Positions 34,188-37,683 of a stretch of DNA of 64,000 nt are shown here, piece by piece. Below the pieces are notes generated by a model. It ran no database searches and was not told the origin of the DNA. It saw nothing but the letters and a program-made list of their open reading frames with translations. Made by a program: the position numbers and the translations under genes. The DNA is from Polyangiales bacterium (GTDB lineage: Bacteria; Myxococcota_A; Polyangia; Polyangiales; JADJQN01), in the NCBI GenBank assembly GCA_964202905.1, contig CAXNJO010000005.1, forward strand, positions 1 through 64,000. Reading direction: 5' to 3'. Positions within the stretch are counted from its first letter, which is position 1, and each line of letters opens with the position of its first letter.

Positions 34188-34949
34188 TCAGCGCCCCGGG
34201 TTCACGCGGCGCGTCCCCGCGGGCGGACGCCAGTTGAAGTCAGCATCCGGCGCGTTCACGCCACTCACCGCGATCTGGCTGAAATCAAAGCGATTTCGGT
34301 TGCCGTCGTGGCCGATGATGAGCACGCGGACGACCATGCTCCCGTTCGTCACGTAGAGCAGCAGGCGCTCGTAGTTGGGGTTCACGCGGCGCGGGCGCAG
34401 CTCGAGCACCTGCCCGCCCGGGACGGCGAAGCCCTGCGTCCGCGGGTCGACGAGGCGGAAGGCATACTGCGCCTCGAGGCGTCCGCGTCCGGTCAGGAAG
34501 GAGAGCGCCTGCGGGAGCTCGCTGTCGGCGACCGCCGTCTCGACCACCTGCCCGCTCTCGCCCTCCGCGCCCGGCTCGTAGAGCTGGATGCGCGTGCCGT
34601 CCGAGGCGAGGATCTTCCGGTTCGGCGCGTCGTAGCGCCAGAGCATCTTGCCGGGCTTCTTGAAGGTGACGAGCCCGCTCGAGCGCTCGTAGCGCTGGTG
34701 CAGCTTCACGTAATAGGTCTGGAAGAAGCGCATCCGGACGACGGGCACCTGATCGTAGAAGCGCTGCACGCGGGCCGCGACCTGCGCGGCCGTGGGCGCC
34801 TGCTGCGCCTCGCCCCGCAACGCGACCGCCACGCACGTCACGGCCGCGAGCGCGGCGAAGGCGACGAGACGGGCCGCGAGCCCGCGCACCGCGGAGCGGG
34901 ACATGGGGCGGGGGCGGACGAGCGCGCGGACCGACGAGCGGGCGTTCAT
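34188..34949 (-). CDS. lolA: Outer-membrane lipoprotein carrier LolA
   Basis: Signal peptide, FFQTY, SGLVTFKKPGKMLWRY, SDG, F.WRPPAG. Confidence 0.88.
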   Translation of the reverse strand: MNARSSVRALVRPRPMSRSAVRGLAARLVAFAALAAVTCVAVALRGEAQQAPTAAQVAARVQRFYDQVPVVRMRFFQTYYVKLHQRYERSSGLVTFKKPGKMLWRYDAPNRKILASDGTRIQLYEPGAEGESGQVVETAVADSELPQALSFLTGRGRLEAQYAFRLVDPRTQGFAVPGGQVLELRPRRVNPNYERLLLYVTNGSMVVRVLIIGHDGNRNRFDFSQIAVSGVNAPDADFNWRPPAGTRRVNPGR

Positions 34950-35066
34950 GGTCTCTCCTTGTCGAAACGGACGGCCGCTCGGACACGAGCCGCGCGGGTT
35001 CTATTCTCGCGGACGCGCGGGGCGCGGCGCAGCGGACGCATGCGCACCCGACGGCCGCGCGCGGCC

Positions 35067-35519
35067 TCAGGGCGTGACGTCGGGGCGCGGCTCGCCGCCG
35101 CTCGTCGCCTCGCGCTCGTGGGACGCCTCGCCGCCGGCGCCTTCGGGCGCGAGGTCGGCGAGCGCGCGCGTCATCGCGATCGCCCACTCGGGACGAAGCC
35201 CCATGTTGCGCGGTCCGCTCACCTCGCGCGCGAGGGCGAGGTAGTGCAACGCGTCCGCCCGGTGGCCGAGGCGGTAGGCCGTCATCCCGCGCAGGTAGAA
35301 GAACCGCCCGCGCTGCTCGACGTCCATGTCGGTCGCGTGCGCCTCGAGGTCGCGCAGCCAGACGTCGGACTCGTCGTAGCGGGCCGCGTCGAACGCCGTC
35401 TCCGCGTGCCCGAGGTCATCGCGCAGCGAGGCACATCCCCCGAGCAGGGCCACGGCGAGCAGGACCGCGGCGGGCAAGGACGAGAGACCGAGCGGGGCGC
35501 GCAGCGCGAGGCGGGACAT
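35067..35519 (-). CDS. Small TPR-like lipoprotein
   Basis: Lipobox LLGGC, FFYLRGMTAYRLG...ALHYLALA. The longer in-frame extension has non-coding-like codon usage. Confidence 0.8.
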   Translation of the reverse strand: MSRLALRAPLGLSSLPAAVLLAVALLGGCASLRDDLGHAETAFDAARYDESDVWLRDLEAHATDMDVEQRGRFFYLRGMTAYRLGHRADALHYLALAREVSGPRNMGLRPEWAIAMTRALADLAPEGAGGEASHEREATSGGEPRPDVTP

Positions 35520-35624
35520 GGGCGCGAGGATACATCGCGCAGGCCACGCGCGAGCAAGCGAAGAAGCGCGCGCGCGGCCGCAGCAGCGCCACCGCGGGGC
35601 CCGCGGAACCGCCGCCGACGCGAC

Positions 35625-36013
35625 GGAGAAGCGTCGTCCCGACCTCGCAGGTGCGGGGCCGGGACGACGGAGCAGGCCGAGCGGGCGCGAACGGCGCGGG
35701 CGAAGACCCGCGATGCGCGCGACCGGGAGCGGGCGGAGGCGAAGCGCGCGGTGCTCCGACGCGAGAGGCGAGCGATGCGCCGACGAGCGATGCAAACGAG
35801 CCCAGCGAAGCCAACGACGAGCAAGCCCAGCGAAGCGGTGCGCGAGGCCGGGCGGAGGGGCGCGACACGAAGCGAGCGCAGAGCGAACCATCCCGGTGGG
35901 CGACGTCGACGCGTCAGGCCAGCGGAGCAGAGGGAGCAGAAGCAGAGCGAAGGAAGAAAAAGGGAAGCGAGGCCAAGCAAGCAAGCGAAGTCGCGCGGCA
36001 TCGATCCGCGCAC
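35625..36013 (-). ncRNA. Candidate sigma-54-dependent non-coding RNA (~385 nt), family unknown
   Basis: Lies between a consensus sigma-54 promoter and a strong hairpin; strongly C/U-rich and A-poor; eight UUCGC motifs; no credible ORF. Confidence 0.4.
35632..35669 (-). terminator. Long hairpin, intrinsic-terminator-like
   Basis: Minus strand CGTCGTCCCGGCCCCGCA-CC-TGCGAGGTCGGGACGACG: 18-bp stem with one G-U pair and one mismatch, followed by CTTCT (weak U tract). Confidence 0.55.
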
Positions 36014-36023
36014 CGCCGTACTT

Positions 36024-36039
36024 AGCAACCTCGGTGCCA
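36024..36039 (-). promoter_or_regulatory. Sigma-54 (-24/-12) promoter
   Basis: Minus strand TGGCAC-CGAGG-TTGCT matches TGGCAC-N5-TTGCW; intergenic. Confidence 0.75.
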
Positions 36040-36078
36040 CGCCCCGCGCACGCCCCGCGCGCGGCCGCCAGAGATGAC

Positions 36079-36093
36079 GAAATGCCCCATTTC
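36079..36093. promoter_or_regulatory. Palindrome upstream of the sigma-54 promoter (possible activator site)
   Basis: GAAATG-CCC-CATTTC, an AT-rich inverted repeat about 66-80 nt upstream of the predicted start. Confidence 0.35.
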
Positions 36094-36198
36094 ACAGGGC
36101 GAAGGGCGCGTCCTGGTCCGCGCGCGCGGCGCGCCCGCGCGTCGATGGTGGCGCCTCCGGCCCTGACATCTCTGTCGCGCCCGCGCGGGCGGGCGACG

Positions 36199-37527
36199 TC
36201 AGATGAGGATCAGGTCGCTCTCGTCGAGGTCGACGTCCATCTCCGAGCGGCTCGACTCGAGCACGATGCGCGTGTCCATCATGCGCTCTTCGCTGAGCGA
36301 CTCGATGTAGGCGCGGATCTCGGGGACGACCTCGAGCAGACGCTGGAAGATCTCGCTCCCGAGAAAGAGCACCGTCGACGCGCGCGCCGCCGTGACGGTC
36401 GCGGTGGTCGGGCTGTCGTTCAGCAGGCTGATCTCGCCGAAGACCTCGCCGGGATGCAGGGTCGCGAGGAGCACGCGGTCGCCGCCATCGAGCTTCGAGA
36501 CGTCGAGCTCCCCGGAGAGCAGCGCGAACAGGCCGCGCCCCGGCTGGCCCTCGCGGATGAGCTCCACGCCCTGCTCGACGTCGTGCGCGGTGAAGCGGCG
36601 GACGAGGTCGAGGCGCTGCTTGCGGTCGAGCGGCCGGAAGAGCGCCGAGGTCGCGAGGAGGTTGTTGAGGAGCCGCTCCCGCGTGAACTTGTCGAGCGCC
36701 CGCGCGATCGTCCCCGCTTCGCGCGCGACCCCCGCGAGCGCCTCGCGGTCGAACTCGAGCAGGTCGCAGTCGGTCTCGGCGGTGACCGTGGCCGAGCGCG
36801 GCGACGCGCTGACGAGCGCCATCTCGCCGAAGATCGCGCCGTCGTGCAGCGTCGCGAGCGGCACGGTCCCGCCGGCGATGTCCTTCTTCGTGACGCGCAC
36901 GGTGCCGCGCGCCAGCACGTAGAACGACTGCCCCGGCTCGCCCTCCGCGAGCACCGTGTCGCCCGGCCGCGTCCGCACGAGCTTGAGGGCCGCGAGCACG
37001 GCGGCGAAGGCGTCGGCCGGCAGCTCGCTGAAGAGCGGGATCGCCGGGAGGAACTCGGGGTAGGCGCCGATCGGCTCGAGGTTCGCGGCGATCTTCTCCG
37101 CGTACGCGACGAGCGCCGGCAGCGGCGGCACGTCGGTGAGCGAGAGCGTCGGCGGCAGCGGCGCGTCGGGGTCGCCGGGCGAGAGCCGCACCGCACGACC
37201 GAGGCGCGGCGAGCCGAGCGCGTAGAGCTGCGCGACGGGGCCGAGCAGCGCACCGAGTTGCGGCTCGAGCGCGACGAGCACCCGCAGCGCGACGAGCGCG
37301 CGGAGCGGGTAGCCGCCGTTCGCCGCGTGCCGCGCGAGGGCGGTGTAGACGACGGCGGCGCGCTGCGCCTCGCCGAGCGCGAGCAGCGTGTCGGCCACGC
37401 GGAGGCGGGCGTCGAGGTCCTGCGGCTGCAAGGCGACGAGCGCCGCGTAGCCGTGCAGCGCCCCCGGGTAGTCGGCCGCAAAGAGTCGCTGGTCGGCGAG
37501 CGCGCGCAGCTCGCGGCAGGTGTGCAT
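36199..37527 (-). CDS. Protein with an N-terminal TPR-like region and two cyclic-nucleotide-binding domains
   Basis: EGEPGQSFYVLARGTVRV...FGEMAL..SPRSATV and EGQPGRGLFALLSGELDV...FGEISL...PTTATV. Confidence 0.9.
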   Translation of the reverse strand: MHTCRELRALADQRLFAADYPGALHGYAALVALQPQDLDARLRVADTLLALGEAQRAAVVYTALARHAANGGYPLRALVALRVLVALEPQLGALLGPVAQLYALGSPRLGRAVRLSPGDPDAPLPPTLSLTDVPPLPALVAYAEKIAANLEPIGAYPEFLPAIPLFSELPADAFAAVLAALKLVRTRPGDTVLAEGEPGQSFYVLARGTVRVTKKDIAGGTVPLATLHDGAIFGEMALVSASPRSATVTAETDCDLLEFDREALAGVAREAGTIARALDKFTRERLLNNLLATSALFRPLDRKQRLDLVRRFTAHDVEQGVELIREGQPGRGLFALLSGELDVSKLDGGDRVLLATLHPGEVFGEISLLNDSPTTATVTAARASTVLFLGSEIFQRLLEVVPEIRAYIESLSEERMMDTRIVLESSRSEMDVDLDESDLILI

Positions 37528-37683
37528 CGTGCGCCGGGATGTTAGACGGGCGCCGCCGCGCGAGGCAAGCACCCACGATCCCACACACCGCGCTACCAAT
37601 CGACGTCGGGGCAGCACGCGACGGCGGCGCCGGGGCTATGCTCGCGGCCCCTACGCTGCGAGGCCACGGGGAAGCACCGACCG

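Follow-up and report, generated by a model that had tools for sequence, protein, structure and literature searches.

A candidate sigma-54-dependent RNA gene carrying repeated GCUU words upstream of lolA in Polyangiales

Here we describe a candidate non-coding RNA gene in the genome of a member of the Polyangiales (assembly GCA_964202905.1; 5.68 Mb in 19 contigs, rated 94.5% complete), which very probably forms an independent transcription unit that is driven by sigma-54 and dependent on an activator, judging from its promoter, activator site and terminator signals. The gene lies in the window, that is, the whole 64-kb stretch of DNA that was analysed (contig C5:1-64000, with a G+C content of 74%). 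On the minus strand the order of genes is a gene for a protein with two cyclic-nucleotide-binding (cNMP) domains, the gap that contains the RNA, a lipoprotein gene and a LolA-like gene. An earlier, sequence-only reading had proposed for this gap a sigma-54-driven, motif-repeating non-coding RNA of ~385 nt, bounded by the hairpin and distinct from the next gene, and this proposal is now supported by conservation and by contigs from RNA sequencing: among 47 loci of related bacteria, the promoter, activator site, motif tract and terminator recur in 47, 47, 47 and 43, respectively.

Conserved layout of the locus

The gap itself is not alignable at the DNA level (against 40 related genomes nothing aligned at E <= 0.001, except the end of the cNMP gene), and the family was therefore located through the neighbouring lipoprotein gene, which has a homologue in 28 of 41 related genomes; LolA is present in all 41. 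Named relatives reached through the lipoprotein gene are all uncultured and labelled Sandaracinaceae, Polyangiales, Polyangiaceae or Myxococcota; the 28-genome set together with the loci of these metagenome-assembled genomes, minus 10 duplicates, gives 64 distinct loci. The sigma-54 promoter pattern TGGCA[CT]-N5-TTGC, with at most one mismatch, was found 143-814 nt before the lipoprotein start codon in 21 of the 28 loci, and 47 of the 64 have one site, and one only, within 1200 nt, oriented in sense (47 sites in 75.7 kb; control sequence taken from the same loci has 7 in 465 kb). The consensus is also followed at positions on which the search did not depend, with C after TGGCAC in 38/47 and T or A after TTGC in 43/47. 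The window's own promoter, TGGCAC-N5-TTGCT, stands at 36039-36024 as the sequence-only reading had it; it is the sole match to TGGCAC-N5-TTGCW in the window, where 0.02 would be expected from shuffles, and one of only six perfect matches to TGGCAC-N5-TTGC on both strands of the genome, which has one copy of rpoN. From this promoter to the lipoprotein ATG (35519) is 520 nt, close to the ~500 nt, beyond the hairpin, that had been estimated.

All 47 loci share a layout of palindrome, sigma-54 promoter and pyrimidine-rich, A-poor tract, followed in 43 by a terminator. Even in a genome of the same genus the gap is not alignable, yet the same promoter and motif words are present. Outside these elements the sequence is free to drift across the family. 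The gene upstream of the unit differs among 21 loci (Peptidase_S8 in 14, a cNMP-binding protein in three, HisD in one, RcpC in one, and no family in two), and so the RNA unit travels with the genes downstream of it. In the 14 of 21 tested loci that have it (for example, L058-L063), the Peptidase_S8 (subtilase) gene separates the RNA from the cNMP-binding gene; neither the window's genome nor the same-genus genome has it there. Among genomes without a homologue of the lipoprotein, a sigma-54 promoter precedes lolA itself in six of seven loci; by reading, five of the six have a clear CU-rich word tract and a terminator, and the sixth has just a short RNA in which GCUU occurs once. The same promoter-RNA arrangement directly upstream of lolA is seen at loci L142-L143.

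The palindrome of this layout is an upstream activator site (UAS) with the family consensus CCATGACA-N4-TGTCATGG, an 8-4-8 palindrome, and is likely to be the binding site of the activator. The window's copy is separated by 19 nt from the stop codon of the gene before it and lies ~130 nt upstream of the -24 element; across the family the distance to TGGCAC is mostly 92-138 nt. GAC(A/G)-N3-ATGTC stands upstream of the promoter in 47/47 loci: 38 carry ATGTCA at -61 to -160, with GAC and ATGTC invariant when these 38 are aligned, and the other nine carry ATGTCG or ATGTCC by reading. A palindrome had been noted earlier at 36079-36093 and is indeed present there, between the UAS and the promoter, but it is not the conserved enhancer, which is that at 36180-36161. 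No counterpart exists at the same-genus locus, and its sequence is not conserved. It lies in a zone richer in A+T (0.42-0.47 at -60 to -30 from the promoter in the 47 loci, versus 0.30-0.39 in bins further upstream); such a zone would suit a DNA bend, and the palindrome is possibly a DNA-bending (IHF-like) site. Abutting the -24 element on its upstream side, at 36038-36059, is a perfect tandem direct repeat, CACGCCCCGCG x2.

At the other end of the unit, the 18-bp hairpin reported at 35669-35632 is present, with 18-nt arms (35632-35649 and 35652-35669) that are 89% complementary. A strong hairpin followed by a T-rich tail is found in 43/47 loci in the sense direction versus 10/47 in the antisense direction, using a strict criterion that replaced a looser first version (45/47 and 29/47). 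Many relatives have textbook terminators with clearer U tails than that of the window. From promoter to terminator the RNAs of the family measure 67-637 nt (median 272), and the median distance from terminator to lipoprotein start is 102 nt. Beyond it, a TAnnnT box occurs 5-9 nt before the ATG or GTG of the lipoprotein gene in 42 of the 64 loci in frame, versus ~1 in the other two frames, and no Shine-Dalgarno sequence precedes the lipoprotein ATG. The window's box, TATCCT, is by its position likely to be the promoter of a leaderless lipoprotein-lolA mRNA. Because the lipoprotein gene has a box of its own, the RNA would be a separate unit and not just a leader; the features of an independent gene that are found by sequence are its own promoter, its own terminator and a separate promoter downstream.

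Protein coding in the gap is rejected. A plot of G+C at third codon positions (GC3) is flat over 36190-35560, whereas the flanking genes reach 0.93-1.00; the three open reading frames of the gap have no Pfam match; and peptide similarity within such frames is confined to near-identical loci, where it extends to all frames on both strands, with the window involved in none of these cases. The earlier description of the gap as non-coding therefore holds, and its MPRDFACLL frame, which lacks both a GC3 signal and peptide conservation, is unsupported as a protein. Nor is the gap a dispersed repeat: it matches only itself genome-wide, with no second copy and with other matches limited to short GC-rich stretches, contrary to the repetitive extragenic palindromic (REP)-like element once considered. 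Four other windows of the genome that are dense in GCTT are coding.

The predicted RNA and its repeated word

The predicted RNA begins with a stem-loop (Table 1), for which the family gives a weak trend: the mean folding energy of the first 45 nt is -13.2 kcal/mol, versus -11.1 for shuffles, and 31/47 lie below their own shuffles. It continues as a tract described earlier as C/U-rich and A-poor, which in the window contains 3-5 A and 59-71 C+T per 100 nt; the family composition is A 0.12, C 0.34, G 0.27 and T 0.27. GCUU words start at 35985, 35981, 35977, 35967, 35942, 35872, 35835, 35825, 35810, 35744 and 35631. The opening 50 nt of the tract contain five of these 11 words, and the densest stretch (35992-35920) is left unpaired by the fold. 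The fold of the window's RNA as a whole is no more stable than that of shuffles (z = 0.24) and leaves the 5' tract unpaired; the words have a predicted unpaired probability of 0.60 versus 0.38 overall.

The word was initially perceived as eight UUCGC motifs. All eight sites are correct, and with 35558 and 36099 they bring GCGAA to 10 copies in the gap, all on the same strand (background across the window, ~1.6 per kb per strand), but the recurring word is better written as CUU-N-GCUU or GCUU, of which UUCGC is part. GCTT occurs in 47/47 loci, 426 times versus 114 expected from composition; CTTCGCTT is found 58 times versus 0.9 expected and CTTGGCTT 36 times versus 0.7. Dinucleotide-preserving shuffles of the family RNAs, cut at their terminators, give the same picture (GCTT 358 versus 168 +/- 11; CTT.GCTT 85 versus 7 +/- 2.6). 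The median is seven GCUU per RNA, and lower-G+C relatives retain the word as CUUAGCUU. Successive words are most commonly spaced by 5 nt, then by 10 and 4, and with such variable spacing no reading frame is kept. Anti-Shine-Dalgarno words are depleted relative to shuffles (CCTCC 20 versus 34 +/- 5.5; CTCCT 22 versus 42 +/- 6), with CTCCTT at 13 versus 16, and a reading of the tract as anti-Shine-Dalgarno sequence is rejected because these words are not enriched.

Recent tandem duplications with units of 9-20 nt are seen inside the tract of L038, L034, L055, L050 and L180, in the last with up to five copies. The tract grows by duplication while the word is kept, and the 13-nt direct repeat of the window, AGCCCAGCGAAGC, read directly at 35799 and 35824 where it had been reported, is of the same kind. 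A second box, UGCUUGCCCGGCAUG, is present in 18/47 RNAs, 28-142 nt from the predicted start (for example, L032, L037, L039, L065 and L069); the RNA of the window shows no more than a degenerate form of it, near 35925-35910. No Rfam 15 family matched: the best score in the gap was 20 bits versus a cut-off of 35 when the window was scanned, with Pxr, CrcZ and CsrB unmatched, and the loci of 20 relatives gave no match at the gathering score. This outcome of a check suggested by the sequence-only reading fits an undescribed RNA.

Part of the stretch is present in 20 sequencing runs, of which two are metatranscriptomes from one study. Each of these two contributes one contig that lies wholly inside the tract and stops just before the hairpin; the contigs differ from the window at 3 and 2 letters, most of which are shared by a DNA run (X1). 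Over 34900-36700 the RNA runs otherwise contribute only 33 nt, part of larger contigs whose sequence diverges to either side of it. No contig of this organism from the RNA runs maps to the flanking genes, from which it does not follow that these genes are silent. That the contigs stay within the tract is what would be expected of an RNA exceeding its neighbours in abundance.

A candidate activator

Genome-wide, a UAS followed by a sigma-54-type promoter within 220 nt is found in four places, namely the RNA and three others (Table 1). Of the three others, one stands ahead of a PilZ gene (E 6e-9), one ahead of a PilZ-like gene (the fragment tested scores below the Pfam cut-off) and one ahead of a small lipoprotein gene; the three may form one small regulon with the RNA, as far as shared sites can indicate. 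The small lipoprotein gene directly follows a gene for a protein with FHA, GAF, Sigma54_activat and HTH_8 domains, the UAS lying 47 nt after the stop codon of the latter. This FHA-GAF protein has one orthologue in 39/41 genomes, at 56-90% identity. Of 30 orthologue loci, 15 have a UAS at 9-107 nt downstream of the stop codon and a sigma-54-type promoter another ~70-95 nt on. The presence of this pair of sites downstream of its gene makes the FHA-GAF protein the best candidate activator; this order-wide FHA-GAF-AAA+-HTH protein is, by gene adjacency, probably the activator of the RNA.

On a larger scale, the joint UAS-promoter pattern is found in 21 of 301 genomes of the phylum, and a reversed control pattern in 0. 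Outside the order the pattern precedes ordinary genes, and a word-rich RNA follows it only in matches within the order (5/6). At one locus in a small genome of the order (L147; G008:C27:62587-62709, minus strand), palindrome and promoter are followed by a ~60-nt GC hairpin and a T run, which may be a different short RNA.

Table 1. Features of the RNA locus and related features elsewhere in the genome (G000)
Feature	Position	Strand	Basis or remark
Upstream activator site GCGCGACAGAGATGTCAGGG	36161..36180	-	Core GACA-N4-TGTCA at 36176-36164; read directly
Palindrome GAAATGGGGCATTTC	36079..36093		Read directly; between activator site and promoter
Sigma-54 promoter TGGCACCGAGGTTGCT	36024..36039	-	GG at -24/-25, GC at -12/-13
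Predicted non-coding RNA, ~390 nt	35624..36013	-	Start from promoter geometry, end from hairpin and tail
5' stem-loop GUGCGCGGAUCGAUGCCGCGCGAC	35990..36013	-	At predicted start; seen in fold
Pyrimidine-rich, A-poor tract, 11 GCUU words	35631..35992	-	Motif count and fold
Terminator-like hairpin, -32.4 kcal/mol, then GCUUCUCC	35632..35669	-	Inverted-repeat search and fold
Contigs from RNA runs	35675..35915 (241 nt); 35692..35910 (219 nt)	not given	One per metatranscriptome run
TATCCT, -10-like box, 7 nt before lipoprotein ATG	35527..35532	-	TAnnnT pattern
Gene with two cNMP-binding domains	36199..37617	-	Pfam; upstream gene, not part of the RNA unit
Lipoprotein gene, 150 aa, signal peptide and lipobox ...LLGGC	35067..35519	-	No Pfam family
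LolA-like gene, preceded by Shine-Dalgarno AAGGAGA	34188..34949	-	Pfam LolA, E 9e-16
Three other UAS-promoter places (loci L103-L105)	G000 C1:800778, C1:277157, C6:136191	-	GACA-N3-ATGTC and sigma-54-type promoter
FHA-GAF-Sigma54_activat-HTH_8 protein, 604 aa	L103:1775-3586 = G000 C1 ~277274-279085	-	
RRM_1 domains, six in the genome	G000 C15:9108-9317, C15:26962-27171, C14:61651-61860, C7:17239-17448, C7:187822-188430		

Mode of action and relation to known RNAs

With a conserved palindrome upstream of a sigma-54 promoter, transcription should need an enhancer-binding ATPase, and we hypothesize that such an ATPase, bound at the palindrome, would activate the promoter ~130 nt downstream. The transcript would consist of a small 5' hairpin, a largely unstructured, A-poor pyrimidine tract with about a dozen CUU-N-GCUU or GCUU words, and a strong GC hairpin at its end, and the lipoprotein-lolA genes would be expressed separately, via their own -10 box, as a leaderless mRNA. 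Acting in trans, the RNA would offer a multivalent single-stranded platform that titrates a GCUU-binding factor, more likely an RNA-binding protein than an mRNA. Titration is the best fit to redundant short words in an unstructured context, in an RNA that drifts freely elsewhere, grows by duplication and lacks a long seed common to the family. That the whole is best explained by a free-standing sigma-54 RNA gene acting in trans as a multivalent platform of GCUU words is, in our estimate, an evenly balanced proposition; that the RNA works as a sponge for a protein, titrating a factor which recognises these words, is offered tentatively, at somewhat short of even chances.

The titrated partner is unlikely to be Hfq or CsrA, the RNA being A-poor and Hfq not found in the 94.5%-complete genome. 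One gene for CsrA is present and nothing links its product to the RNA; CsrA recognises a word other than GCUU. Proteins with RRM_1 domains are common in the order (40/41 genomes, compared with two of 14 control genomes, a cyanobacterium and a Bacteroides), and the genome has one CSD domain; no RRM_1 or CSD protein is linked to the RNA.

A number of observations weigh against the interpretation as a free-standing, trans-acting RNA gene. The contigs from RNA runs come from one study, have a depth of ~2 and give neither strand nor transcript ends, an RNA library may carry DNA, and both contigs begin ~100 nt downstream of the predicted start. There are 17 of the 64 loci without a promoter at one mismatch or fewer: four of them keep the upstream palindrome, 12 have neither, and one (L086) has only 325 nt upstream in its contig. 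The hairpin of the window has a poor U tail, with 4 U in 9, for which reason a strict terminator scan missed it. Family-wide, the word has an unpaired probability of only 0.46 versus 0.42 overall (higher in 32/46 RNAs). Gene adjacency is the sole link between the activator and the UAS. The GGA word of CsrA is not enriched by eye in the RNA of the window, which has four, and an RRM protein as obligatory partner is weakened by G010, a genome that carries the RNA and has no RRM_1 match. Finally, strict adjacency of the RNA to lolA would fit a role in cis too.

Such a role is the substance of the strongest alternative, in which the sigma-54 promoter is a conditional second promoter of the lipoprotein-lolA genes, the unit is a long cis-acting leader, the hairpin is an attenuator and the short RNA is a by-product; on balance we hold this to be unlikely, as we do its corollary that a protein, or Rho loaded on the C/U-rich tract, might for instance govern read-through. 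The unit always lies directly upstream of lipoprotein-lolA, or of lolA alone in the absence of the lipoprotein gene (6/7 such loci have the promoter, and L142-L143 share the layout), its upstream neighbour varies among relatives, and its 5' tract resembles the sites on which Rho prefers to load in being rich in C, poor in G and unstructured; the weak terminator tail of the window points the same way. Against this stand the leaderless-type -10 box between terminator and ATG in 42/64 loci, the canonical strong terminators of many relatives, and the RNA-library contigs, which cover the tract and not the genes; no alternative antiterminator pairing was found in the unit. Without a Shine-Dalgarno sequence before its ATG, moreover, the lipoprotein would be translated poorly from a read-through transcript. 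The attenuated leader is thereby weakened yet still standing, because the RNA always adjoins lolA.

Base-pairing in trans, the commonest mode of action of bacterial small RNAs, would instead make the GCUU/CUUCGCUU words or the UGCUUGCCCGGCAUG box seeds for AAGC-containing sites in mRNAs. The tract is single-stranded in the fold and 18/47 RNAs do have the longer conserved box, but we find this reading decidedly improbable given that anti-Shine-Dalgarno words are depleted (CCTCC 20 versus 34, CTCCT 22 versus 42), that no seed longer than 8 nt is common to most members, that no Hfq was found in the genome, and that a dozen redundant words of 4-8 nt would fit titration better. Pairing of the RNAs with the 5' ends of lolA and lipoprotein genes from their own versus other loci gave no signal (21/40 and 22/40), in a test that is crude because duplex folding of long RNAs allows very large loops. 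It is very improbable that the gap has no RNA function at all and serves instead as an array of protein-binding sites in the DNA, as a low-complexity spacer prone to slippage or as a gene for a small protein (the MPRDFACLL frame). Tandem duplication has enlarged the tract in several relatives, and one reading frame is open through the gap; the words, however, are strand-specific and always lie between a conserved promoter and terminator, their spacing of 4, 5 or other numbers of nucleotides keeps no frame, no GC3 signal is present, and peptides are conserved only between near-identical loci, in all frames.

The free-standing RNA gene can be compared with several known systems. CsrB, RsmY and RsmZ are sponges for CsrA that display GGA in hairpin loops, and sponges of the CsrB, RsmZ and CrcZ type evolve by drift and duplication with their words kept. 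The RNA described here likewise has many copies of a short word, drifts fast elsewhere, and varies in length and copy number among relatives; it differs in being A-poor, with four GGA by eye, and in carrying its words in sequence predicted to be unstructured. MicL, a sigma-E-dependent small RNA of E. coli, represses lpp; it too depends on a stress sigma factor and suggests a possible tie to lipoprotein traffic, but here the tie consists of adjacency to lolA, and both sigma factor and anatomy differ. Pxr is ~100 nt long with three stem-loops and, like the RNA here, is a regulatory RNA of myxobacteria for which dependence on sigma-54 and an NtrC-like activator has been proposed; nothing in the window matches Pxr in Rfam, and its gene neighbourhood is different. 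In the part of the text available to us, one paper names Pxr as the only functionally characterised myxobacterial small RNA and confines it to the Cystobacterineae (PMC8538405).

The closest resemblance is to CrcZ and CrcY of Pseudomonas, which depend on sigma-54 plus CbrB and act as a sponge for Hfq/Crc (described in part in PMC5113210 and PMC6292655). As is predicted for the RNA here, CrcZ and CrcY are intergenic RNAs of hundreds of nucleotides, with an activator-dependent sigma-54 promoter, a repeated single-stranded word and a terminator just before the next gene. Unlike the A-rich words of CrcZ, however, those of the present RNA are CUU-N-GCUU in a pyrimidine-rich, A-poor context; no Hfq was found in its genome, it has no sequence or Rfam similarity to CrcZ/CrcY, and its candidate activator has FHA and GAF input domains instead of a receiver domain. 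By analogy, then, the RNA unit would work most like CrcZ/CrcY and evolve like CsrB/RsmZ, and it appears to be a member of neither, since it has no Rfam match, a different word and no Hfq. A sigma-54 RNA beside lolA is previously uncatalogued, with no Rfam family and no matching paper: the literature searched, from which subscription journals were absent, describes no small RNA of the Polyangiales, no lolA-linked RNA and no palindrome of this kind.

The Polyangiales are an order rich in natural-product producers and represented mostly by uncultured genomes, for which, as far as the available portions of the literature go, knowledge of small RNAs is near nil. The present work provides a well-delimited RNA gene that can be detected in most members examined, together with a testable control circuit of palindrome, sigma-54 and candidate FHA-GAF activator. 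The new repeated word, CUU-N-GCUU, points to an undescribed binding partner, and identifying it could reveal a new bacterial post-transcriptional regulator, a possibility raised by the failure to find Hfq and by the difference between this word and that of CsrA. The fixed position beside lolA suggests a link to the sorting of outer-membrane lipoproteins. It is conceivable, although we regard it as doubtful, that these RNAs form a new, signal-controlled class of sponges in which the FHA-GAF protein switches on a long unstructured RNA that titrates a pyrimidine-word RNA-binding protein. In this reading the FHA-GAF protein would also drive the two PilZ-type genes (their products resembling receptors for cyclic di-GMP) and the lipoprotein gene, as appears to be the case in this genome, and the RRM-type proteins, unusually common in this order, would be candidates for the titrated partner. 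If this were true, a kinase or second-messenger signal would be coupled to the post-transcriptional control of the envelope and of lipoprotein traffic in the Polyangiales.

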